Origin: a virus
Taxonomy: Duplodnaviria; Caudoviricetes
Direction: 5' to 3' (one strand)
Virus record (IMG/VR): IMGVR_UViG_3300036783_000180
Location: 64,001-128,000 of that record
Length of the DNA: 64,000 nt
The notes below the pieces were generated by a model, which saw only the letters and a list, made by a program, of their open reading frames with translations, made no database searches and had not been told where the DNA came from. A program made the translations under genes and the position numbers. How positions within the stretch are numbered: the stretch's first letter is position 1; every line of letters starts with the position of its first letter. Shown here in pieces: positions 7,563 to 57,911 of this stretch.

Positions 7563-10032
7563 CCATATTCACTCCATTCTGTTCTAATGTGTGTTTCACA
7601 CTCTCAGGATTTAATTGACTTTTAGGTTTAGCACCACTTGAGTTGAGAAGCTTTCCGAATACAAACGCATCTACCATTCGTCCAGGGATAGAACCTGCAA
7701 ATGATCTATTGTCAGCGATTGTATCTAAAACTAATGTGTTAAGAAAATCATTTGAAGCTTCTTTGATTTGACCATGTGTATATTCAGCCGCAGACTTTAA
7801 GAATAATCCTTTCGCATTACTCGGAAGACCTGCATGACCTAACAATTCTTTCGCTTCTTTTTCCATATTACCACTAGATAATAATGTAGCAGTTTTTAAA
7901 AGCGCCACTTCATTAGCGTTCAATCCATTTTCAGAAGCGAACTTAGTTAGGAACTCTTCGTTAAATGCGCTGAAATTACCAGAAGGATACACAGACGCTT
8001 CTTTAACTAATTCTTCGAACTCTTGCGCCGCACTCTTTGTAATAGCACTCTTCGCTTTATTAACTGCTTCAGGGAAATCTTTCATAACGACTTTACTTAC
8101 AGGCTTACCTGCAATTACGCCACCTAGTGTAAGCATTCCCGGACGGTCTGCAATGAAGTTTTCAGCATCAGATAAGTTTCTTCCGTTCTCTCGTCTGTTT
8201 TTTTCGAATGCACTAGCACCGTAAACAAGAGGGGCAGTGATACCTAGTAACTTCATTGTGCCTAGTCCACCTGCACGTTTGTTTTGAACGATACGAGCCG
8301 CTTCTTCTTGTTGTAGACGTTTACCTTCTGCAACGCCATTATTATACAATAACGCCTCATTCATACCGTTAAATGGATTAGTGAATGCGGCAGTTTTTTC
8401 TAATTCAGAATCAAGGTATTGCGCCATTTTAATTAATCGTGTTACACGAATTTTAGGACGCATATCTTGATAACTACGGTAAGCGAGTGTGCCTAAAATA
8501 TCACCTAGAGATTTAGGATTAACCATCATGTCGATATCTCGTCTTACATCGCTTCCTCCAACTAATGAATGCCCACCTGTTAGCACCGCAGCTAAACGCG
8601 GAATTAAATAATCAGCACCTTGACTACGAGATTCTAAGAATGGAGACATTTGACTACGAATGACTTTTACTACCTTCGTAGATGGGATATCATCTAAGTC
8701 ATCATGAACATTAATGCCACCCATGAATCCGAATGGATCAGAATTAAAACCTTTCATATCATGAGCAGTGCCATCATATAATTCAGTTAATCCCGATGGA
8801 TCGTTAATGTCAGGTAATTGTTCTGTAGCAAGAGAAGTTACTTTAAATGCTTTCGCTACATCAGACGGGAATACATCTTTGCTATCAGAATCCGATAAAG
8901 ATAATTCAGGTCTGTAATGAGCGTCAGTTAATCCAGAAAGAATCGTATGCAATTCACCTGGGAAGAATTCAATCCCCAATGTTTCTGCAATTACTAAGAA
9001 TGTAGAGAATACTTTATGCTCAGATAAACCTTCTTCTTCAGCTAACGATTTTAGCGTCCCTGCAATGTTCATTAACGATTCATCATCGAAACGTTTTTCT
9101 GTTAAGAATTTAACGATACGTAACATTTCTCCGCCTTTTTCCATATCCTCTTCGGTAGGAATAGAAGAAACGTTTACGATTTTACCTGTTAACTCTTTTT
9201 CTAATTCCGCTAGCTTTTGGAACATAGGGTTTGTGTGAGAAGCCACTTTTTCGATATCCCTTTGAACTAAAGGATGCAGTACTTTATCATGACTAGCCAC
9301 TTTATCCATTTCATAATCACTTAAACGAATGAAGCGAGTTTTTCCGTTTGCAGAAGCTACTTTTTGGAATGCAGTTTTAGATTGACCTTGACCAGAATCA
9401 AAAACAACTAAAGCTTTTGCAACACGCTCAGCGCCATTTAGTACCGCAGAAGAGTCGTGGAATTTCGGCTTGTGGTTAATTTCATAAACTCGTTCTCCAT
9501 TACCTAAGAACTGCATACGGTATTGTCTGATATGGTCACAGAATTCAGTTTGTTTACGAGCTTTATTACCGCAAACAGAGCAGATTGTGTAAGGCACTCG
9601 GCAACCCATAGAAACGTCAGTTAAGTATCCTTTTTCGAAACCACGCACAATTTCAGGAGCGATTTTTTTATCGATACTTTTGAAGATTTCTACACATTTT
9701 AAAACAGGGTTCCAACGAACAGAAATGATTTCACCAATTGCTTGTTCAATCTTTTTGTTTTCGTGGTTTTTAAATACATGACCATCTTTGAAAGTTTCAT
9801 ATGTGTCGATTAATTCACTTTCAGGGAAGTAGTCACCGTTTTTGTTCGGGCCATAATATTCGCCTGCACTGATAATCCGCACCCATAAGTACATGAAATC
9901 AGGATCGAACTCAAAGCCATCAGGTAAATCTACATTTGTACTTGCCACTTTTTCTAAGTGTTCAGCACTTGCTACATTGTACAATTCGTACTCAGAAATT
10001 TGAGAAGGGATTGATTTGTCAAAACCGTTCAC
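7549..10032 (-). CDS. Prohead protease fused to a long internal-head region
   Basis: Likely start GTG 10032 behind AAAGGAG; GPNKNGDYF, FKNHEN (His), DVSMGC (Ser), CSVCGN..FCDH; many K-x-A motifs. Confidence 0.65.
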   Translation of the reverse strand: MNGFDKSIPSQISEYELYNVASAEHLEKVASTNVDLPDGFEFDPDFMYLWVRIISAGEYYGPNKNGDYFPESELIDTYETFKDGHVFKNHENKKIEQAIGEIISVRWNPVLKCVEIFKSIDKKIAPEIVRGFEKGYLTDVSMGCRVPYTICSVCGNKARKQTEFCDHIRQYRMQFLGNGERVYEINHKPKFHDSSAVLNGAERVAKALVVFDSGQGQSKTAFQKVASANGKTRFIRLSDYEMDKVASHDKVLHPLVQRDIEKVASHTNPMFQKLAELEKELTGKIVNVSSIPTEEDMEKGGEMLRIVKFLTEKRFDDESLMNIAGTLKSLAEEEGLSEHKVFSTFLVIAETLGIEFFPGELHTILSGLTDAHYRPELSLSDSDSKDVFPSDVAKAFKVTSLATEQLPDINDPSGLTELYDGTAHDMKGFNSDPFGFMGGINVHDDLDDIPSTKVVKVIRSQMSPFLESRSQGADYLIPRLAAVLTGGHSLVGGSDVRRDIDMMVNPKSLGDILGTLAYRSYQDMRPKIRVTRLIKMAQYLDSELEKTAAFTNPFNGMNEALLYNNGVAEGKRLQQEEAARIVQNKRAGGLGTMKLLGITAPLVYGASAFEKNRRENGRNLSDAENFIADRPGMLTLGGVIAGKPVSKVVMKDFPEAVNKAKSAITKSAAQEFEELVKEASVYPSGNFSAFNEEFLTKFASENGLNANEVALLKTATLLSSGNMEKEAKELLGHAGLPSNAKGLFLKSAAEYTHGQIKEASNDFLNTLVLDTIADNRSFAGSIPGRMVDAFVFGKLLNSSGAKPKSQLNPESVKHTLEQNGVNMDAKL

Positions 10033-34286: not shown

Positions 34287-35021
34287 TTAAACTAAAGTAA
34301 CACCAAATTTATAATCAATGAAGTACGTTTTCGCTTCTGATTTTATTTCATCAGTTAAGAACTCATCTATTTTCTTTTGAAGTTCTTTTGCATGTTTCAT
34401 TATTCTATCTTCTGCATCTTCGTGCATTTCATCAGTCGCCGCACTAATAATATCTCTAGCATCGATAGAAATATCATGTATACTTGTACCGTAAATAATT
34501 AAACAAGATAAGTCTAACTCATCTTCTCCATCTTCAATCAAATCAAGATTTCTATCCGCGATCCATTCTATTAACTCTTTAGGTTCGATAAATCTATCGT
34601 GACCTTCAATATAAAGCATTTCGAACTTTTCAAGAGCTTCTTTATAAGGTACCTTCTCAGACTTCTCAAAACGCTCTCTCTCACGTTTCGCTTCTTGCAT
34701 GTCTCTTACTGCTCTAGCTTCAGCGCAGTCGCAAACTGTACGTCCCTTCGTGATATAATCGTTACAATAGAAACAACGCTTGCGAACACCATCATAACAG
34801 TGTTTGCAAGACATAATATATTCTCTACGGAATGGGAAGAGAATTCCTTTAGGATGATTGTAACCTTGAATCCCGAACACACCTGGAGCCACACCCATTC
34901 CAGTCCCGCCACAAGTTGTGCAGATTTCTTCTAAATCATTTAGATGCTTCACCAAAGTATGTTCAAATTTAATTTTTACTTTTTCTTCTCGTAATCCGTT
35001 TTCTTCTAATGATTCTGTCAT
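34287..35021 (-). CDS. Zn-finger hypothetical protein
   Basis: CTTCGGTG, CKHC, CFYC, CDC. Confidence 0.65.
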   Translation of the reverse strand: MTESLEENGLREEKVKIKFEHTLVKHLNDLEEICTTCGGTGMGVAPGVFGIQGYNHPKGILFPFRREYIMSCKHCYDGVRKRCFYCNDYITKGRTVCDCAEARAVRDMQEAKRERERFEKSEKVPYKEALEKFEMLYIEGHDRFIEPKELIEWIADRNLDLIEDGEDELDLSCLIIYGTSIHDISIDARDIISAATDEMHEDAEDRIMKHAKELQKKIDEFLTDEIKSEAKTYFIDYKFGVTLV

Positions 35022-35659
35022 TTTAATCCCTCTTTCTTTTCTTCTAAATAACCTAAAACTTTATTTGGAGCCATACCTTTAGAACATAAACGTCTAGCTG
35101 ACCAGTAACTAACACCCAAAAAATTACACCATGTCGATAACGGTTTTAATTCGTTTTCATATTCTATTAGTTTAATGTTTCGTTTATTGATGCTTTGTTC
35201 ATCAGAGGTAGACCACTTACAATTACATGGACTATAACCTTTATTAACATCTATTCTATCAATAGTTAAACTGTCTTTATATCCATTAGACATAGACCAC
35301 ATATAGAAACTTTCAAAATCTTCCTCCCACAACCTACAAATTTTTATCCCTCTACCTCCATAATCAAGATAGTCTTTATTTTTAGGGTAATTACAACGAC
35401 TTTTCATAGCTTTATATATACGGTATATTCTAGTTTTATACAATCCGTGTTTGGTAGCTCTTTTAGTTGAGGATTCAGATAAAAAACACCCACAAGATGT
35501 AGTTCTGCCAGACCGTAAATTTCTCCCTTGTGTTGTAGTCTCTTTGCCACAATCACATTTACACTTCCACATAGCGACCCGATCTTTAGATGATCCATCC
35601 CTATATAAAACCGTTAGCCTTCCAAACTTCTGACCTTTTAAGTCTATAGCTTTACCCAA
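35018..35659 (-). CDS. HNH-family (homing) endonuclease
   Basis: DLKGQKFGRLTV, WKCKCDCG, SCGC, YGGRGI, TIDRIDVNKGYSPCNCKW. Confidence 0.85.
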   Translation of the reverse strand: MGKAIDLKGQKFGRLTVLYRDGSSKDRVAMWKCKCDCGKETTTQGRNLRSGRTTSCGCFLSESSTKRATKHGLYKTRIYRIYKAMKSRCNYPKNKDYLDYGGRGIKICRLWEEDFESFYMWSMSNGYKDSLTIDRIDVNKGYSPCNCKWSTSDEQSINKRNIKLIEYENELKPLSTWCNFLGVSYWSARRLCSKGMAPNKVLGYLEEKKEGLK

Positions 35660-36047: not shown

Positions 36048-36797
36048 TTAAACTAATTGGTACCACCATTTTTTACTGTCTAACCAATCAGTGAAACCTT
36101 TACGTTGAGCATCCGAAGTTGGATCAGTCACAACATAAACAATTCCGTCAGATTGAAGGATGAACTTACCTGTCATCTTAAGTGACAGTAAAGCACCAGC
36201 CACATCCTCCATATTAGAAGGTGCGAATCCACCTGTTTGAACTACTTTCGTAGTTGGTTCAGGAGCAACAGTACCGCCGCCGCCAACTGTTTGTCCAGTT
36301 AAAGCGTAAACGATAGAGTTAGCAATTTTATCAACATTCCACTTAGCCATATCAGCATCGTTATCGATGAATCCTAATTCGATTAAGATAGCCGGAGCTT
36401 TTGTACCTTTCAGTACAGCTAAGTCAGTACGTTGTTTTGCACCACGATTAAACCAACCAATATCTTTCGATAATTGAGCTGAAATCTTAGCAGCTAACGC
36501 TTCTTGGTCGTAGTATAAAACTTCTACACCATGAGCCGAACCGTTGTATGCATTCAAGTGGAACGAAATAACAAGGTCAACCGCATGAGAGTTACATTTA
36601 GCAACAATATTATTTAAGTTTTGAGCTTGTGTAGAACCGACTTCATCAGTGTCATCATAAACTGTATGACCTAATTGGCGTAGTTTAGCAATAACAGCAT
36701 CCTTAACTTGACGATCCATGATATGCTCTTTACGACTTCCAGAGTTAGCACCCTGTACGATTGAGTTATGTCCACCATGACAAGAATATCTAGCCAT
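36048..36797 (-). CDS. Endolysin: N-acetylmuramoyl-L-alanine amidase (Amidase_3) with C-terminal cell-wall-binding domain
   Basis: HGGH...E, ISFHLNA, GVEV, PAILIELGFIDN; C-terminal VQTGGF...WLDSKKWWY. Confidence 0.92.
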   Translation of the reverse strand: MARYSCHGGHNSIVQGANSGSRKEHIMDRQVKDAVIAKLRQLGHTVYDDTDEVGSTQAQNLNNIVAKCNSHAVDLVISFHLNAYNGSAHGVEVLYYDQEALAAKISAQLSKDIGWFNRGAKQRTDLAVLKGTKAPAILIELGFIDNDADMAKWNVDKIANSIVYALTGQTVGGGGTVAPEPTTKVVQTGGFAPSNMEDVAGALLSLKMTGKFILQSDGIVYVVTDPTSDAQRKGFTDWLDSKKWWYQLV

Positions 36798-36875
36798 TTA
36801 ACAACATCTCCTTTTTCCTAAATTTGTATTACTCATATATTATAGCACGAAAAAAGACTAGGATTCACCTAGTCT

Positions 36876-37552
36876 TTAGAAAATTAAATATCCAATAATA
36901 ATTCCAGTCATATAAAAGATTAATACAAACGAACAAAAGCCTCTCCATTCATTATGTATAATCCCAGCTATATAAATAAGACAAGTAATAAAGAACAAAG
37001 CTAAACCTACATAAGCATAATGCAAACTAATCCAAAATACAAAGATACCAAGTCCGATATTACCAAAAACTAAAATCGCTAACAAGGCACATACAAAATT
37101 AGCAACCGCATTATCTATTCCCCACACTCCTTTTTCACCTCTCGATACACAGTGCCATTGTAATCACCGTTATTTAATTTATTCATTTTAATGATAATCT
37201 TTTCGTCTCCACAGAAGCAACCATGAATTAGCATACCTTTACCTACATGCAGTAATGTATGACAGTCATATCGAATACCCAACATATCAACAACCGCATT
37301 TCTAAAAGTTTCATAAGCTCCAAATAGCCCTAGATGATCTTCATGTTTATATCCAACTTCCCAAATCGGGTGCTTTTCAAAATCTTCTTCCTTAAATGCA
37401 TCACTTAATTCGTCACGAACTAACTTCTTCCAATAACTAAATCCTTTTACTTTATCGAAGAATGTAGCAACGAGAGTGCCATCGGCACTCTCGTTATTCT
37501 CCAAGATATCCCAGCCTTCTAAGTGAGTGTTTTCTTGGATTTTATATTTCAT
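36876..37552 (-). other. Membrane protein (36876-37127) and hypothetical protein (37115-37552)
   Basis: Coupled ORFs. Confidence 0.6.
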
Positions 37553-37554
37553 TG

Positions 37555-39147
37555 TTAGTTAACTCCCACTTCATAGAATGTAATTTTATATGATAAACAT
37601 TCATTCGTTGTAGAAAGTACCTCAACAGCAAATCCCCCTAATTCCGTCTGCAAACGGAATGTCATTACAGCTCCAAAACGGGGAACTTTAGTGTAAGTGA
37701 AATCACGTTCATTAGATGCGTAACCTTCTCGCGTAAGAATATGAACAATCTCGTGTTGCAATGCAGCCATACATTCCATTTGTGGAGCTTTCGCATCTAA
37801 CACATAAGAGAATAATTTCTTGCGACCATTACGCATGAAATCTTGGCGGTGTTTATCATATATATCGTCCATTGTCACCTTACCATCTAAGCAGATATGA
37901 TTTGCACTTATAGTGATTTCTCCCGCGCCAGTTTGATTAATAACAGATTCGCAACTGTCATTACCAACTTTTGATTGAATTCTATCATCAGTTACAGTGA
38001 TTATTGACTCAGCTTTCCCTATACGATCAGTAATAGTACATTTAGCATTATCAATATTAATTTTAGATGCCGAAACCGTCGCATCCATTGGAGCACTATT
38101 GATTTGCTTAATAACATCTGCCGTTTTGTCTTCACGATTTAAATTAATCTCAACACGTTTCGCTAGTGTTTCATCATAAAATTTCGCTGCCACGCGGCCT
38201 GTTTTATTATTAATTAGTTCGTAACCTTCGACCTCGTTACCACCTTCAGCTAAAGTATAAGCGAGGTGTGTAGATTTTACTTCGCGCTTAGATTCTGTAG
38301 TAGCTACTGCAACTGGAGAAACGTTTTTTATCGCTTCTTCAAATTCTTTCTGCTCTGCTACAGTAAACAAACCACCAAATATATGAATACCTTGTTTACT
38401 AATCACAGACTTAGCTAAACCTTCATCATCGAATACCCATCTTGAATACTGCCCGTAAGATTCCGCAAACTCGTCTTCACTTAGCGTTCCAAATACACCA
38501 TCACCATATAGGACGATATAAATTCCATCAACTAAAGGTTCCCATCCAAGAGGTGTGCGCAACCAAACTTTGTTACCTTCTTCTTTATACTGCCAATTAT
38601 TAGTTCCGAAGAACTTAAAGAAATTACGCAACGTATTTCTGCCCATGTATCGTACAACAACTTTTGGCATTTCGTTCTCTTCAATTTCAATCGGTGCTTC
38701 TGGTTCGCGAGGTTTAACGAAAGCATCTTTCACAGCATTTCGTTTTTCCATTTCCGCAACATAAGCTTTGATTTGATCTATTGCTTTTTGATTTTCATTA
38801 AATCCAACTGGATCTTCTACTAATGTGAATTTCGTTCTGTTTTTGTATTTAACTGTAATCAGATTCATACCGGACATACTTGGTTCAACCTTAATATCAT
38901 CAAGCGGTACATCAATAGCTTCAATGAAGATAAAATTATTTGCAACGAAAACTTCCGAAAGACCATGGAAATAATCAGAGTACATTGTACCTCTACATTC
39001 GATTGGGGTTGCAATACCATGTTTAATAAAATCAAAAATTCTTTGAGGTTTCATTGTTTTCTCTTCACTTTTTCTTTTAAAAACAGGATAAATAATTCCA
39101 TTCAACACAACGTCATACAAATGTTTTGCTTCTTCAATTCTTGCCAT
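37555..39147 (-). CDS. Mosaic early protein with a PGDYG-like domain and tail-fibre-like segments
   Basis: LRTPLGW...DGIYIV...EFAESY; RIGKAESIITVT..RIQSKV...SVINQT..EITISANHI.LDG. Confidence 0.6.
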   Translation of the reverse strand: MARIEEAKHLYDVVLNGIIYPVFKRKSEEKTMKPQRIFDFIKHGIATPIECRGTMYSDYFHGLSEVFVANNFIFIEAIDVPLDDIKVEPSMSGMNLITVKYKNRTKFTLVEDPVGFNENQKAIDQIKAYVAEMEKRNAVKDAFVKPREPEAPIEIEENEMPKVVVRYMGRNTLRNFFKFFGTNNWQYKEEGNKVWLRTPLGWEPLVDGIYIVLYGDGVFGTLSEDEFAESYGQYSRWVFDDEGLAKSVISKQGIHIFGGLFTVAEQKEFEEAIKNVSPVAVATTESKREVKSTHLAYTLAEGGNEVEGYELINNKTGRVAAKFYDETLAKRVEINLNREDKTADVIKQINSAPMDATVSASKINIDNAKCTITDRIGKAESIITVTDDRIQSKVGNDSCESVINQTGAGEITISANHICLDGKVTMDDIYDKHRQDFMRNGRKKLFSYVLDAKAPQMECMAALQHEIVHILTREGYASNERDFTYTKVPRFGAVMTFRLQTELGGFAVEVLSTTNECLSYKITFYEVGVN

Positions 39148-39292
39148 TTTTCTCCATCTCCTTATCGTTAGTTAATACATATATATTGTCATGATTAATT
39201 CCTCTAAGTGGTGTCATACCTTCGGGCTCACGAAAAACTATTTCTGAGCCATTCGCAAAAGTTATTTTCTTTGGTTGTTTTTTCTCTTCCAC
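39134..39292 (-). CDS. 52-aa peptide not in the ORF track, resembling a large-terminase ATPase segment
   Basis: RBS GAGGTG + GTG; MEEKKQPKKITFANGSEIVFREPEGMTPLRGINHDNIYVLTNDKEMEKNGKN. Confidence 0.7.
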   Translation of the reverse strand: MEEKKQPKKITFANGSEIVFREPEGMTPLRGINHDNIYVLTNDKEMEKNGKN

Positions 39293-39316
39293 AACTATCA
39301 CCTCTCAACAATCAAA

Positions 39317-39345
39317 AGTATATCATGTTCAAAAGACTTTGAAAA
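39317..39345 (-). promoter_or_regulatory. Early promoter with TTGAACATGA-TATACT element
   Basis: Same element as the sRNA-array promoters; lies just after terminator 39354-39380. Confidence 0.7.
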
Positions 39346-39382
39346 GAAAAATAATAGTGTGCCCAAAAGGGCACACTATAGG

Positions 39383-40333
39383 TTATGAAAATATCTTAGT
39401 TAGTTTTTGCCAGAATTTTAGTGATTTCCACTCTTTATGCTTTTCCGTTGTCCACTCAGACTTAATTGCATCTCTAATTTGTTTTTCTATCTTAGCGCGA
39501 ATAGAAGAGAAATTATGATGATTTGTACCACAAACAGAAAGTGTTTTGTTAACTTGCATGAGAGCCATCCAAACCACCTTCCCACTTTCTGTTGCACCTA
39601 TAATAGTCGTGTATTTCAAGCCAGGATAATCTATTCTCACTCCATTCGCCATTACATGTTGAATTTCATAAGAACTCAATTTACTGTAGTTATCTACTAC
39701 AGTAAATTTATTCAAATCGAACATAATAGAGATATTTTTATCAGGATTCTTTAGGTGTTCTAAATCAGCTACATAAACCATATCTTTAATCTTAGTGATA
39801 CGAACGCCACCTAATTCCCACGTTTCTTTACTATTATTCTTAGAATAAGAGCCCTCAGATAGCACTTGTTCTAAAATATATCTAGGGATACCACGGCTAT
39901 TCTCGATAGGCCCATACAAAATACTTTTCTTCTTCATTTGGCTAACCTTTTCAGCTTCATTAATTAACCATGACAATTCATCGTACTTCATAAGAACAGC
40001 AGATTTATCATCAACTATATTTCCTATTTTTGATGACTCTATTTTGTCTTTAATTTTACTTAATACCTTATTTTCTTTATTGATCAATAAACCATCACTT
40101 TTTATATTCCATATCGTAATTTGATTAGGGAACCCTAAACATTCGTTGACCATTGTTTCCATGTACCTTCCAGTATGAGTGTAACCATCCACTTTATAAA
40201 CAGAGAACCCCATATCTAAACGTTCACATTTCCACTCTGTTTCCATGAGAAATATAGTCATTTCTTCTTCCGTTAAAGCAAAATTTTCTGCATTCGTCAC
40301 TTCATAAGTTTTATTTCTATATCTAACAATCAT
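39383..40333 (-). CDS. Protein with ~3 tandem BrnT/DUF4258-like domains
   Basis: LTEEEM..FL...DGYTHTGR; IPRYILEQVLSEG; LSSYEIQHVMANG...GATESGK. Confidence 0.5.
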   Translation of the reverse strand: MIVRYRNKTYEVTNAENFALTEEEMTIFLMETEWKCERLDMGFSVYKVDGYTHTGRYMETMVNECLGFPNQITIWNIKSDGLLINKENKVLSKIKDKIESSKIGNIVDDKSAVLMKYDELSWLINEAEKVSQMKKKSILYGPIENSRGIPRYILEQVLSEGSYSKNNSKETWELGGVRITKIKDMVYVADLEHLKNPDKNISIMFDLNKFTVVDNYSKLSSYEIQHVMANGVRIDYPGLKYTTIIGATESGKVVWMALMQVNKTLSVCGTNHHNFSSIRAKIEKQIRDAIKSEWTTEKHKEWKSLKFWQKLTKIFS

Positions 40334-46301: not shown

Positions 46302-47489
46302 TTAATTAGCTTTAAAGTTATATAGAGGTTTAATGATATCTTTGATATCGATTATATCTTTTGTATTCTCAACAATTTCATCCATCGGCTTATATACCAT
46401 TGGCGCTTCATCCAGTGTGCTTTCCACAACAGAAGTTGTCCAAACATCAGCCATTGTGTTTTGGAAATCTTCTAGATTAAGTAACTCTTTCGCTTTCCTA
46501 CGGCTCATGATACGTCCTGCTCCATGTGGTCCAGAGAAGTTCCAATCAGGATTACCTTTACCGAACGCAATAATAGAACCGTCTCTCATATTAATTGGAA
46601 TAATTACTCGTTCATCTTTTTGGGCTGAAATTGCACCTTTACGCATAATCATATTTTCCATGTCGATATAGTTATGGATTGTAGCGAATTCATCAGTTAT
46701 CTTCCAACCCATTCTAGTAACAATTTCATTAATCATCGCTTTACGATTTAATCCTGCATAGCGTTGCGCAATTACCATATCGTTCATGTAATCTTTGAAT
46801 CCTTGACCTTCTAGATAAGCAAGTTCTTTACGAATCTTCGGTTGCTTAACCCCACGTAAAGCTTCATGGATTTCTTGCTGTCTACCTTCTCTCGTTAAGC
46901 GCTCAATGATTTCGTCTTTCGTTGACTTAACATTCATCAGTTGCTCATAAGCAAGGTTTTGATAATGTTCCGCTATTTGTTTTCCTAAGTGACGAGAACC
47001 ACTATGAATAACAATGTACACATTACCCTTAGCATCTTCATTCAGCTCAATAAAGTGATTCCCTCCACCAAGCGTACCAATACTGTTTTCAGCGCGTTGT
47101 AAATTAAACGGAGCTCTCACACTACCAAAGTCAACCATCTTTGCGAAGCCATGTGCCTTACCACGGATAGAGAATCCACTTGGCACAAACTTATAAATTG
47201 TTTCATCCAATTGGTCGAAGTTGATTTCTTCTTTCTTCTTATCGATGATAGCAACATGCATCCCGCAACCGATATCAACCCCTACGAGATTCGGGACAAT
47301 CTTATCTTGAATCGTCATTGTTGTTCCAATTGTGCATCCAGCCCCTGCATGTGTATCAGGCATAACACGAATCTTGCTACCTTTTACAAACTCTTGGTTA
47401 CATAGATCAATAATTTGACCTGCCGCAGTTTCCTCAACGTTATTAGTGAACACCTTCGCCTCATTGTATTTACCTTGTAGTTTTAACAT
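46302..47489 (-). CDS. rtcB: RtcB RNA-splicing/repair ligase
   Basis: MPDTHAG.GCTIG, VGVDIGCG, GTLGGGNHFIE, HSGSR, HNY, HGAGR, DEAP..YK. Confidence 0.95.
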   Translation of the reverse strand: MLKLQGKYNEAKVFTNNVEETAAGQIIDLCNQEFVKGSKIRVMPDTHAGAGCTIGTTMTIQDKIVPNLVGVDIGCGMHVAIIDKKKEEINFDQLDETIYKFVPSGFSIRGKAHGFAKMVDFGSVRAPFNLQRAENSIGTLGGGNHFIELNEDAKGNVYIVIHSGSRHLGKQIAEHYQNLAYEQLMNVKSTKDEIIERLTREGRQQEIHEALRGVKQPKIRKELAYLEGQGFKDYMNDMVIAQRYAGLNRKAMINEIVTRMGWKITDEFATIHNYIDMENMIMRKGAISAQKDERVIIPINMRDGSIIAFGKGNPDWNFSGPHGAGRIMSRRKAKELLNLEDFQNTMADVWTTSVVESTLDEAPMVYKPMDEIVENTKDIIDIKDIIKPLYNFKAN

Positions 47490-52007: not shown

Positions 52008-53636
52008 TCCTCATCACCTCCAAGTAAATTTGTCGTACAGAACATTTCATAAATCACAACTAACGATTCATTAGGCTCATACTCAACTTTCTTCTTAGAT
52101 ACAATATATCGATGCCCTTTGATTTTAACTTCATTACCCTTTGATAAATCAGGAAACGGATTATTACTTTCGTAACGACCAACCTCTTCGTACTCAGCAT
52201 CCCATTCCGGTAAAGCCATAAAGATAACGTTGTACCGGAATGACGGTTTGATACCTTCATTTGCGAACTTCCAATTTTCAAGTTCTTCCGGTGTAAAGAA
52301 GTAGGCTTGCGATTCACCCAATGGACCTTCAGCATACGCAAAACCTTGTTCTGCCATATATTCTTTGATAGCTTTCTTTCTTGGTCCATCTGCACTTTCC
52401 CTATATTCCTTTATTAATGCCACTCTTTCTGTTGACTGCTCTTTAGTTAATTCCATCTAGTTTCCCCTCCGGATAATAATCTTTTCTTCTTGCATGTTCA
52501 TCGCACGTATTAATCGGAATGACTCTATCGGGCTTGTCATCATCTTTAAAACGACCAAAGATAAATCCTTTGGTCGTTGCTTTCTCTTCACATGTTTTAT
52601 ATCCGCAAATACTTTTACCCTTCTCTTCACTGTTCATTAAGATCATCCTTTAATAAATCGTTAATAGATTTTGTTAGTTCATTCGTAATGCAACTACCAC
52701 AAAGATGTGCATCAATCTCAATGCCACGAATGAACATGGTTTTTACCTTCTCTGTTTCATTACAGAACTCACAATAACTACCGCCAACTTCACGCCACTC
52801 AATTGCATTTGTATCTAGTTCAGGATCCGTAACACCCGGAATTTTGTAGCCCATATGTTTTAGTTGTTTAATATACTCCGGCTTTAGTTCTCTCGTTGGT
52901 TCATTTGCCACAATTTCAAACGCTTGAACATATACCATTTGCCTACGACCGCTATCTTTAATCTTTCCTTCTCTTCTTAGTTTCTCCACTTCATAATTCA
53001 TTAAGTATTTCTGAGTAGCTATAATCGTTCTAACCTTCATACCGACTTTAACAGTTGCGCCATTAATCTTTGCATACACATCACTTTCAATTAAGTACTC
53101 TTCCGGTACATTGTGATACGTTACAAACATAGTAAAGAACTCTTCATAATCTTTGTTACGCTCTTTGCAATCTGTATATTCTAGTTCAACTAACGTTCCA
53201 TCATGCTTTTTGAACTTAATTAAATCGATACGTTCGCCATCTTTGTACTTTAATGTTCTATCGTAAATCTCAGCAACGTCAGCAATTTTAATACCTTTCC
53301 AAATCATTTCTTCTTTGTTCAATCCCATAATATTCTCGCCCTTTCTTCTACTCGTCTTTTTCTTTCAAACTTCGCTATACACGGGAACTGACAGCAAGGA
53401 ATAGATTTAGCTCCGCCACCATCCATACGTGTGACTAACTTATGCCTTGTATATTTTTCACACACTTCGCATTTTTGATAGTCTTCGTTATTCCTGAATA
53501 CACCTTCCGCATTCACTTCAATGCAGTTTATCGGAATTTCGTTGGCCGTTCTGTCTTCTATATCACTCATCATCTTCTTCATCTCTGTCATCGCATTTCG
53601 CCTCGCATTCATCACATCTGTACCGTAATTCACCAT
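52004..53636 (-). other. Four hypothetical CDS
   Basis: Coupled ORFs. Confidence 0.6.
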
Positions 53637-54135
53637 TTATCATTGTTTGAGAGTTTTGTTGATCGGTAGGGAAGCCGCAATCCATACAAGGCCTTGGACC
53701 ATCATCACGTGTTTCATCAAAGAAAACCGCATCAACCTTAACACCCTTAACTTCCTCCCGAACATCACCGAACCAAGTTGGAGTTGTCGTTTTAATATTC
53801 GTCGCGCCAATCGGGAATTGTAATGGTATATGCTTAGGCGTAAAGTTCCCTACAACTTGAACTACATCGTTTTCTGGCATACCTACATCCATTCCAATCA
53901 CTTCAACTTTTGATTCACTTGCAGTTAACATCTTTTCCAATTCCTTCATAGTTAACCTATTCACTTCATGCGGAACATCTATAACTTGATCATCTTCCAC
54001 GTGCAGGTAATATTCAGCACTGCTGCATTCTGTTAAATGGTCAATCAATTCCTCTACCGTTTTAAATCCTCCAGTGTGATAAAGGCCCGACACGATATCT
54101 CTCAATAACTCCATCTTGATTTCCACTCGTTTCAT
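53563..54135 (-). CDS. Early protein carrying terminase-like motifs and a C-terminal Zn ribbon
   Basis: VIGMDVG; LQFPIGATNI...VKGVKVDAVFFDE; CMDC..CDEC. Confidence 0.55.
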   Translation of the reverse strand: MKRVEIKMELLRDIVSGLYHTGGFKTVEELIDHLTECSSAEYYLHVEDDQVIDVPHEVNRLTMKELEKMLTASESKVEVIGMDVGMPENDVVQVVGNFTPKHIPLQFPIGATNIKTTTPTWFGDVREEVKGVKVDAVFFDETRDDGPRPCMDCGFPTDQQNSQTMINGELRYRCDECEAKCDDRDEEDDE

Positions 54136-54155
54136 TTTCCGTTCCTTCTTTCCGA

Positions 54156-54905
54156 TTAAAATAATTGTGAGTTGTTACCTGTGTTCATTCTATTCACATA
54201 AGCATTTCGTTCTCGCATCTCTCTTGCTTCTTGCACACATTCTTCGCACTCGTATGTGGATTTTTCAAATATTATTCTGTCACGCGTAATGTCCAATGGT
54301 TCAATTTTAAGTCTAAGAGTGGGAGCATTACACCCCTCGCAACAACCAAAAGGCGGCGCACTCGCTTGTATTAATTCTTCCGTTAATTCATCTTGGTCTT
54401 TACCGATAACAAGTATGGATCCATAAGTCGTTTTAATCTCAGCTTGTTTATTAATATCTAATGGTTGTAGCGCTTTGACTTCTTCAGGTGCATCATTCCA
54501 GTAAGCTCCTTTTTCATTCCAATCCCTTACTTTTACCCAAGTTTGCGCAACTCGTTGAGATATCAGAAGATGGTCCTTTTGAACGCTATTTTTAGATATC
54601 TCATCCAAATTATCTTCTTGCCACTCAAGATACTGAGATAGTTCATTCAATATTCCTTGAACAGTACGTAACAACTCTTTTGGTTCATAGTCTTTTGCGA
54701 ATATATCGCTATGATCAACAAACGCCCTATGTTCGTTCCACATCTTTATGTCTTTTAAAGTCGATTGGGCTCCTAGAAGTTTTGTTTTTGTGTATACTTT
54801 TACAGAAATAGGCAACAACGATTCTCCCTCAATATGTTCGATATACTCAACTACTCCCTCTAATTCCTTTTGTGCCTTTTTCAATAACTCTTCTGTTGGT
54901 CGCAT
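54156..54905 (-). CDS. Hypothetical protein with internal duplication and C-terminal Zn ribbon
   Basis: Two P.ELL...Q..L..L..Y.E..E helical repeats; EIKTTYGSILVIG. Confidence 0.6.
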   Translation of the reverse strand: MRPTEELLKKAQKELEGVVEYIEHIEGESLLPISVKVYTKTKLLGAQSTLKDIKMWNEHRAFVDHSDIFAKDYEPKELLRTVQGILNELSQYLEWQEDNLDEISKNSVQKDHLLISQRVAQTWVKVRDWNEKGAYWNDAPEEVKALQPLDINKQAEIKTTYGSILVIGKDQDELTEELIQASAPPFGCCEGCNAPTLRLKIEPLDITRDRIIFEKSTYECEECVQEAREMRERNAYVNRMNTGNNSQLF

Positions 54906-56351: not shown

Positions 56352-56449
56352 GACATCACCTCACGAAAAAATTAAACAATATACTCCTGTATATTGTTAT
56401 TACTTTGCTTTTAACATACGACACCGTTCGAGTGCTTTTAACAATTCAT

Positions 56450-56479
56450 ATCATATCATGTTCAAGGAAGTTTTGACAG
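56450..56479 (-). promoter_or_regulatory. Early promoter TTGAACATGA-TATGAT for the long early operon
   Basis: Extended -10 plus conserved element. Confidence 0.65.
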
Positions 56480-56499
56480 TTCGATTCTTTTAAAATGCA

Positions 56500-56664
56500 C
56501 AAAGAAAAGGCGCACTCATAAGAGTACGCCTTTTCTCCAGCAAGAAAGATTAGATTTTAGGAATTAAAATCAATGAATGAAAGTCGATATCTGCCAAAAA
56601 GGTATTACCTTAGCAACAGAATGAAAATCTGTAGACCAGAATTTAAAGCAATTCAACAAGGATT
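56500..56664 (-). ncRNA. sRNA unit 1 (~165 nt)
   Basis: Promoter TTGACT-17-TATACT (56699-56671); terminator 56501-56536. Confidence 0.7.
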
Positions 56665-56702
56665 ACCTTAAGTATACCGATTTGGATTTTATAAGTCAAT
56701 AA

Positions 56703-56812
56703 CGAAAAAGAGCCACGCATAAGCGTAGCTCCTTCCCAACAATTGGAGTATTTCACAATGATTCAAACCGTAACAATTCGACCTTAGAACAGTAACATTG
56801 ATGAATGACAGT
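56703..56812 (-). ncRNA. sRNA unit 2 (~110 nt)
   Basis: TTGAACATGA-TATACT (-10 at 56819-24); terminator 56704-56731. Confidence 0.7.
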
Positions 56813-56993
56813 GACCTAAGTATATCATGTTCAATGTAAAAAGAAAAGACCTAATCGAATTAGGTCTTTTCTGGCGTCAGTTTTGAAACTATTCGGAGTA
56901 TGCAATTCCATAGCACTTGTACTTAAAGGTGGGAAGTCCGACTCTCCTACAAGACAAACTTCTAAAACAGTGACCTAAGTATATCATGTTCAA
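56808..56993 (+). repeat. 27-bp direct repeat ACAGTGACCTAAGTATATCATGTTCAA (56808-56834, 56967-56993)
   Basis: Exact repeat covering the promoter and 5' end of units 2 and 3; a similar ~37-bp pair at 57368 and 57710. Confidence 0.9.
56838..56971 (-). ncRNA. sRNA unit 3 (~135 nt)
   Basis: -10 at 56978-83; terminator 56838-56872. Confidence 0.7.
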
Positions 56994-56996
56994 CGC

Positions 56997-57202
56997 AAAA
57001 AGAAAACACCTAGCTTCCGTTGCTAGGTGTTTTCTGAGACTCAATATGTCTCGTAAAGGGTTGTTGGAGCCTGAAGGCTCACCGGCAATAAGGTTTATAA
57101 TTCAAAAAGGTTGAGAAAAATAAAACTAAAATTGGATTGGTATCAAACATAGACATTGTAGAGACAGATTCATAACAAAAGCAGTTAAGAAAAAGTATCA
57201 GC
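56997..57202 (-). ncRNA. sRNA unit 4 (~205 nt)
   Basis: TTTACA-17-TATAGT (57237-57209); terminator 56997-57035. Confidence 0.7.
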
Positions 57203-57248
57203 ACAATTACTATATCATGTTCAAAGTAGTTTGTAAAGTCAGAACAAT

Positions 57249-57366
57249 AAAAAAGAAGACTATGACCGCAAAGGCATAATCTTCTTCATAAAAAGGTGGT
57301 GTAACAAGCATGACTCATCAAATCTTCAAAAGCTCTCGAAACTAATGAAGGAATATCGCGTTGTGC
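57249..57366 (-). ncRNA. sRNA unit 5 (~118 nt)
   Basis: TTGCAA-17-TATATT (57401-57373); terminator 57249-57286. Confidence 0.7.
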
Positions 57367-57404
57367 ATACATAATATATCATGTTCAAGTTACTTTTGCA
57401 AATA

Positions 57405-57512
57405 GAAAAACTAAAGTCCCTAGCAATCGTGTGCTAGGGACTTTAGTACCCAAAACATATATTAAAAGGATCACCATGGAACAAAAACCACATCTTACAA
57501 CTACAGCTCGTC
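57405..57512 (-). ncRNA. sRNA unit 6 (~108 nt)
   Basis: TTGACT-17-TATTAT with TG extension (57547-57519); terminator 57405-57446. Confidence 0.7.
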
Positions 57513-57550
57513 CTAGTCATAATAACACCTTTCACAAAGTCAGTCAATAT

Positions 57551-57708
57551 AACGTAAGGAACCCTCGGTTTTCCGTGACCGAGGGTTCTAAGTAAGAAAA
57601 ATAAGCTTATAAAAAAAGAAGAAAGGAAAAATTGAACAAGCAACAAGTAATCGCCAACTCGTAATCACACTGTAGAAATCTGCGAAGCTCATAACCAGAA
57701 ATGAGCTT
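57551..57708 (-). ncRNA. sRNA unit 7 (~158 nt)
   Basis: TTGCAA-17-TATATT (57743-57715); GC-rich hairpin 57559-57588 with weak U tract. Confidence 0.65.
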
Positions 57709-57745
57709 GTACATAATATATCATGTTCAAGGAACTTTTGCAAAT

Positions 57746-57881
57746 AAAAAATAACTCCCTTTGGGAGAGGGAGTTATTTTGGGAATCTGAGGGGACTCCC
57801 TAACGCAGTAAAATAGTTACACTACAACCAGCAAGATATCACACCAAGATATCATACACCAATAAGAATTTAACAACCAGT
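57746..57881 (-). ncRNA. sRNA unit 8 (~136 nt)
   Basis: TTGATT-16-TACAAT (57915-57888); terminator 57746-57780. Confidence 0.65.
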
Positions 57882-57911
57882 GCATTTATTGTATCATGTT
57901 CATAGGAAAAA

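Follow-up and report, generated by a model that had tools for sequence, protein, structure and literature searches.

Recognition of the phage terminase is one of the main ways in which bacterial pattern-recognition immunity (Avs1-3 and Upx) is triggered, and why phages encode small terminase look-alikes is an open question (PMC13601566). Among these look-alikes are vs.8 of phage T4, Ksap1 (74 amino acids [aa]), and Ksap2, which are small, lineage-restricted phage proteins resembling the ATPase of the large terminase subunit (TerL) and binding the Avs2 pocket; the authors who describe them suspect that they are anti-defense proteins that the sensor came to recognize (PMC11564622, PMC13601566). 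Avs2, as Avs1-4 generally, is described as recognizing the fold, its pocket being large, complementary in shape, and also in contact with ATP, and the model proposed for Upx is that unfolded core strands of the TerL ATPase are threaded by beta-augmentation, largely irrespective of sequence (PMC13601566). In another system, SPbeta-like Bacillus phages make DSAD1, a mimic of the tail tube protein that traps DSR2 (PMC10973363). Here we describe a 52-aa small gene whose product resembles a single segment of the TerL ATPase, encoded on the minus strand of a 64,000-nucleotide (nt) stretch of phage DNA, hereafter the window (bases 64001 to 128000 of the 175,348-bp IMG/VR record IMGVR_UViG_3300036783_000180; 36.9% G+C).

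Comparison with its relatives shows the open reading frame (ORF) at 39134 to 39292 (Table 1) to be a small gene that is translated and under selection. It leads the ORFs that follow a rho-independent terminator and a promoter-like site, both conserved in the related contigs L004, L005, L006, L010, and L011. A near-perfect Shine-Dalgarno sequence, GAGAGGTGAT, lies 4 nt (AGTT) from the GTG start at 39292, or 8 nt when counted from its AGAGG core, and both the sequence and its spacing are kept in the relatives. The 52-aa start is favored over a 55-aa alternative (GTG at 39301) because ATG occupies this position in four relatives. The original prediction had called this ORF, its amino acid sequence, a good ribosome-binding site (RBS), and a position as first ORF after a promoter, and all four agree with the translation and with the signals that we find (promoter at 39345 to 39317).

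The gene is so far confined to six metagenomic contigs. Five variants make up the 90% cluster of the peptide, with DNA available from three Logan contigs (L005, L006, and L007), and a fourth contig (L010) codes for a 54-aa homologue with 69% identity to the window peptide. Two further relatives, L011 and the more distant L004 (a 174-kb IMG/VR contig), lack the small ORF. Additional relatives were sought in genome and metagenome collections and none was found; the locus has no near or distant DNA or protein match among 50,697 phage genomes, and a word-index homologue search with the peptide returned only itself. A match in a Cronobacter phage was rejected as a chance similarity because it is on the strand opposite an annotated gene.

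Selection on the peptide is evident from these few sequences. The RBS and the frame are kept in all variants, and the frame survives a two-codon insertion or deletion in L010. Between the window and L010, the small ORF has a synonymous divergence (dS) of 0.6 to 0.7 and a ratio of nonsynonymous to synonymous divergence (dN/dS) of about 0.34 (estimates from 0.33 to 0.44), compared with dN/dS values of 0.10 to 0.19 and 0.17 to 0.38 for the flanking genes, and it carries an excess of synonymous change (Fisher p 0.003 to 0.01). Purifying selection or neutral decay had been posed as one of the checks for this gene, and the outcome is purifying selection. Change within the FANGSEI hairpin core is exclusively synonymous (Table 1), which indicates that the peptide sequence matters and not merely its translation, and every one of the seven residues that follow FANGSEI is replaced.

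The likeness to TerL extends over residues 6 to 43 of the peptide, and alignments with three different TerL lineages all place this stretch in the same register. The best non-self match of the peptide within its own genome is the phage's own TerL, in which residues 113 to 141 (FKNGSEIYLRN...NIRGLSIDDIFI, followed by DE) are identical to the peptide at 12 of 29 positions. Profile comparison (hhalign) with the family of this GpA-type TerL (an alignment of 37 sequences) gave a probability of 46% for the single peptide, rising to 70% (P 4e-5, score 34) for the five-sequence peptide family once a diverged homologue was added; the maximum in 400 column shuffles was 24.9. The same comparison with a Terminase_3-type set, comprising 78 TerLs gathered around Bacillus phage PM1, gave 85 to 89% (P 2-7e-6) over 34 to 45 ungapped columns in the same register, with a maximum of 23.8 in 300 shuffles. 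Natural sequences behave likewise as a null, in that 450 short six-frame segments from the phage's own genome scored no more than 21.1 and 24.8 with the two profiles, where the peptide scored 30.2 and 40.5.

Three comparisons made without these profiles also lead to terminases. Pairwise blastp aligns the peptide with the TerLs of PM1 (E 2e-6) and PBC4 (E 4e-6), and in the latter NIYV followed by DE faces NIYV followed by LT. A tblastn search of the 50,697 phage genomes with the L010 variant returned eight records, all of them terminase genes of PBC4-group phages of Bacillus cereus, with KCQFTNGSFIQ...TIRGQRYNNIYVDE facing KIKFANGSEIN...SIRGINFDNIYVLT. A feature search of the ESM Atlas with both variants returned clusters of proteins 58 to 94 residues long, and those bearing Pfam families carry terminase families only (Terminase_3, Terminase_6N, TerL_ATPase, or GpA_ATPase), with scores (0.86 to 0.92) and shared-feature counts in the range that the tool calls a lead only. 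The TerL likeness proposed in the original prediction thus stands, given the hhalign probabilities and the far lower nulls, and is limited to the one segment as had been expected. Additional terminase snippets had been proposed at 53563 to 54905, and these find no support: neither protein there has a Pfam match, and the one of the two that was compared with the TerL profile (53563 to 54135) shows no similarity to it.

The peptide keeps the NG-turn hairpin (F-x-NGS-x-I), the R/K-G loop, and the hydrophobic Walker-B strand. The loop pair R30-G31 corresponds to a position 11 residues before the Walker-B glutamate in the phage's own TerL family. In the TerL of phage P74-26, an arginine (or lysine) between alpha2 and beta3, R139, acts in trans (PMC5727402), and from position only we infer that R30 is its equivalent. 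There is no counterpart of Walker A in the peptide, which aligns only to residues 112 to 141 of the phage's own TerL, the P-loop (GRQVEKST) of which is at residues 40 to 47. The acidic Walker-B pair, D-E in the phage's own TerL and in PBC4 and E-E in PM1, is replaced by L-T or T-N. The true TerL gene lies outside the window, at genome positions 8381 to 9997 (PF05876, lambda gpA-like, and PF03237), about 93 kb from the small gene, and six-frame scans with PF03237 and PF04466 recovered either this gene or nothing. The small gene is accordingly a stand-alone segment, devoid of the catalytic DE and far from the packaging genes, as first described. We note that a relative of the phage's TerL with 65% identity sits on a 175,244-bp Priestia megaterium contig, a clue to which hosts this group of phages may infect.

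Comparison with the two relatives that lack the small ORF delimits a lineage-specific insert that provides its own RBS, a start codon, and 43 codons. L011 has 11 unrelated bases in place of window positions 39309 to 39164, and L004 similarly has no insert. Both keep the terminator, the promoter box, and the RBS of the downstream 530-aa gene (p530), so that the TerL-like part was either gained or lost as a piece of about 146 nt. The last nine residues of the peptide (KEMEKNGKN) come from the older leader of p530, its RBS and start region, read in another frame. Between the window and L005 or L006 the block of terminator, promoter, and ORF is about 95% identical, whereas the flanking 316-aa proteins share only 63%, which points to modular exchange at a conserved boundary. 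True homology to TerL and very close convergence are inseparable here, and descent from a TerL gene is the simpler account. Two other origins were rejected, namely, duplication of p530, prompted by KFVYENGSELSF in L004 (hhalign probability of 1.6%), and a larger, decayed TerL around the ORF, of which no remnant was found in the flanking proteins or DNA. As a separate observation, the block at 39309 to 39380 is near-identical in L004, L005, L006, L010, and L011, with identity of the flanking proteins dropping to 62 to 73% and 33%; it may be a conserved module boundary and a possible recombination point.

We tentatively favor the interpretation that the TerL likeness is itself in use, with the peptide competing with the TerL segment for a binding factor, because the selected residues are those conserved in TerL and the variable loop is the variable loop of TerL. 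A TerL-like piece appears to have entered one sub-lineage of these ~175-kb Bacillus-type phages between the promoter and the p530 RBS and has since been kept by purifying selection, and its product could act as a competitive look-alike of the hairpin-to-Walker-B segment toward a factor that binds TerL. The leading candidate for this factor is a sensor by which the host detects the ATPase core of the terminase and which the peptide would occupy without triggering, although we regard this part of the proposal as doubtful. The second candidate is the terminase ring, either the phage's own or that of a rival, and we give it little credence. Strand-threading sensors such as Upx would be more plausible targets than the folded-surface readers Avs1-3; the original prediction had proposed a non-activating mimic that occupies Avs receptors. 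In its most specific form, that of a minimal non-activating ligand of a Bacillus/Priestia terminase sensor plugging either an Upx-like groove for unfolded or nascent TerL or part of an Avs pocket and thereby hiding the genuine terminase from the cell, the proposal is unlikely.

Several observations weigh against the look-alike interpretation. The selection pattern is supported by only about two effective sequences, and the 3' third of the ORF is near-identical in DNA and overlaps the RBS of the next gene, so that part of the conservation may not be at the protein level. Pfam hmmscan at E values up to 10 finds no terminase family in the peptide, and PHROGs finds nothing. A phmmer search of 1.84 billion representative sequences returned only the peptide's own cluster and ankyrin-repeat proteins, and a PDB search likewise returned ankyrins; these matches arise because repeated xxNGxxVxxxDxxGxTPL units add up, and a search with the family profile lowers the ankyrin score. 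With a hidden Markov model (HMM) of the phage's own TerL family the peptide scores 3.0 bits, which is within noise (rank 5 of 1,549 six-frame segments). AlphaFold2, run without an alignment, predicts a hairpin only (strands at residues 8 to 11 and 17 to 20), followed by coil and with no helices, at moderate confidence (pLDDT 64); by itself the peptide probably forms a hairpin followed by a flexible tail that tends toward strand formation, and judging from this model a 52-residue, mostly unstructured peptide is unlikely to match the large surface of the folded ATPase, together with ATP, that Avs1-3 are described as reading (PMC13601566). The close relatives L011 and L004 do without the gene. 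Finally, vs.8, Ksap1, and Ksap2 have a four- to six-stranded sheet with flanking helices where the peptide has a 38-residue hairpin-loop-strand, and they activate Avs2 rather than block it.

It is also possible, in our estimation, that the likeness is irrelevant and that a co-opted TerL fragment is kept as a leader or accessory peptide, for example one that tunes translation of p530 through the 14-nt overlap of the two genes, or one with a small-protein role of another kind. The arrangement suits such a role: the small ORF covers the p530 RBS and stops 11 nt inside p530, and the insert lies exactly between promoter and RBS. The last nine residues would then be an accidental read into the old leader, and the relatives without the small ORF use an identical promoter and RBS. 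A leader role accounts poorly for the coincidence of the selected residues with those conserved in TerL and of the variable loops with each other, and for the synonymous-only change in FANGSEI. Nor does the leader RNA give any structural signal, with no Rfam family at the gathering score and a fold z-score of -0.88; a structured RNA leader was rejected on these grounds, with no attenuator or arrest feature identified. Programmed frameshifting into a fusion with p530 was also rejected from the sequence, as it needs a +1 shift and there is no conserved slippery site.

We think it improbable that the peptide, by means of a loop resembling the trans-acting arginine, docks on or co-folds with a TerL subunit, whether from a rival, a resident prophage, or the same phage, thereby poisoning packaging or setting its timing. 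The placement of R30-G31 at the invariant R-G, the inferred P74-26 R139 position (PMC5727402), would fit this activity, as would the closer similarity of the peptide to the Terminase_3 and PBC4-type TerLs of other Bacillus phages than to the phage's own. However, one would hardly expect a defined interface from 52 residues of strands that belong to the buried core, and self-poisoning would be costly.

Chance or convergence, in which an orphan small gene has an NG-turn hairpin and a hydrophobic strand that are merely TerL-like, also seems unlikely to us. The Pfam, PHROGs, PDB, and 1.84-billion-sequence HMMER searches that recover no TerL and prefer ankyrins are what this account leads one to expect, as is the 3.0-bit TerL HMM score at rank 5 of 1,549. 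The p530 homologue in L004 has a comparable hairpin, and the small gene had been picked out at the start from among many ORFs and motifs. Set against this are the agreement of three TerL lineages in one register (P 4e-5 to 2e-6), natural-sequence nulls that come nowhere near the peptide, and the finding that two diverged variants retrieve terminases only in tblastn and language-model searches; the preference for ankyrins weakens with the family profile. A recent, functionless terminase relic that is still undecayed would suit the patchy occurrence among relatives and the very few sequences known, but it is hard to credit given that frame, start, and RBS have persisted to a dS of ~0.7 relative to L010, synonymous changes being in excess, that a piece from within TerL would have supplied neither a near-perfect RBS nor a start, and that there are no flanking TerL remnants.

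The small gene appears to head a transcription unit that continues with p530, a 145-aa gene (p145), and a gene for an 83-aa membrane protein. Pfam and PHROGs give no family for p530, the genome holds no paralogue of it at E < 1e-3, and its AlphaFold2 model (pLDDT 49) is unusable; the tail-fiber segments that had been proposed within p530 have no support at the BLAST level. The minus-strand region also codes for an RtcB-type tRNA-splicing ligase and an HNH endonuclease (46302 to 47489 and 35018 to 35659) among small genes.

The 16-nt promoter box of the small gene recurs six times on the same strand at 56465 to 57730, each time preceding a short ORF-less unit bounded by terminators, and the promoter thus belongs to a phage-wide class. 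The region at 56400 to 57900 (minus strand) is organized as six to seven tandem units, each with a hairpin terminator, the box TTGAACATGATATA[CTG]T, and then 100 to 250 nt that contain no RBS-led ORF up to the next terminator. The arrangement resembles a tandem set of small RNAs, each transcribed from its own copy of the box that also precedes the small gene. The label "early" that was first attached to the gene rests only on this sigma-A-like box, which it has in common with the putative small RNA array.

Table 1. Features of the small-gene locus and the downstream transcription unit, in window coordinates
Feature	Coordinates	Strand	Basis or remarks
Rho-independent terminator of the upstream 316-aa gene (39383-40333)	39354..39379	-	11-bp stem, T-run
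Sigma-A-like promoter TTTTCA-17-TGaTATACT (TG-extended)	39317..39345	-	Predicted from sequence
16-nt promoter box TTGAACATGATATACT	39317..39332	-	Identical in all relatives
Lineage-specific insert (~146 nt) with own RBS, start, and 43 codons	39164..39309	-	Comparison with L011 and L004
Shine-Dalgarno sequence GAGAGGTGAT	39297..39306	-	Near-perfect; kept in relatives
52-aa small gene	39134..39292	-	GTG start, ATG in relatives; stop 11 nt within next gene
TerL-like segment, residues 6-43	39164..39277	-	Hairpin KITFANGSEIVF, variable loop, R30-G31, strand NIYVL
FANGSEI hairpin core	39239..39259	-	Four synonymous and zero nonsynonymous changes, window versus L010
R30-G31	39200..39205	-	Aligns with invariant R132-G133 of the phage's own TerL family
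RBS AAGGAGATGGAG of the 530-aa gene	39152..39163	-	Inside the small ORF; unchanged in relatives whether or not they carry that ORF
530-aa gene p530, no assigned family	37555..39147	-	First 14 nt shared with the small ORF
145-aa gene p145	37115..37552	-	No family in Pfam/PHROGs; synteny conserved
83-aa hydrophobic (membrane) protein, final gene of the unit	36876..37127	-	Sequence
Unit-ending terminator, hairpin AGACTAGG/CCTAGTCT and T-run	36850..36875	-	Read from sequence
Endolysin promoter TGcTATAAT	36839-36847	-	Directly after the unit terminator; missed by consensus scan
Endolysin gene	36048-36797	-	Own promoter

A stand-alone segment of 52 residues is easy to synthesize and to delete, and it offers a small handle on terminase sensing, with which to ask whether fragments bind sensors, whether they block or trigger them, and which TerL strands are read. 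If the peptide does act as a sensor decoy, it would be the smallest known immune decoy made from a piece of the sensed protein and, together with the TerL-fragment clusters of ~60 to 90 residues in the Atlas, one example of an anti-sensor strategy that is widespread and as yet undescribed. If it has no such role, it is still a clean case of how a gene fragment inserted behind a promoter can give rise to a new small gene.

The peptide differs from each of the described systems to which it can be compared. As a first ORF of its transcript that covers the next RBS and ends 11 nt past the next start codon it resembles leader peptides, but it is unlike them in that selection acts on the amino acids of a TerL-like motif. 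It has 36 to 42% identity over 29 to 45 residues, with no more than one gap, to the TerL ATPases of the phage itself (GpA_ATPase/Terminase_6N type), of PM1 (Terminase_3), and of PBC4; the TerL domain exceeds 200 residues, of which about 38 are aligned, and the peptide has no nuclease domain. DSAD1 may serve as a working model of a mimic that fills a sensor pocket without activating it, although DSAD1 is a folded tail tube mimic seen in a solved complex and has no homology to the peptide. Isolated core strands of TerL, as modelled in Upx, are the kind of ligand that the peptide could imitate; the strands named there are beta1, beta4, beta5, and beta6, and the Walker-B strand may or may not correspond to one of these. 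Further parallels are vs.8, Ksap1, and Ksap2, which are similarly small, lineage restricted, terminase-ATPase-like, and encoded away from the packaging genes, with the difference that vs.8 keeps Walker A and B and the peptide has neither Walker A nor the acidic pair. Stand-alone TerL-ATPase-like phage proteins are thus already known, and the peptide described here is a much smaller variant.

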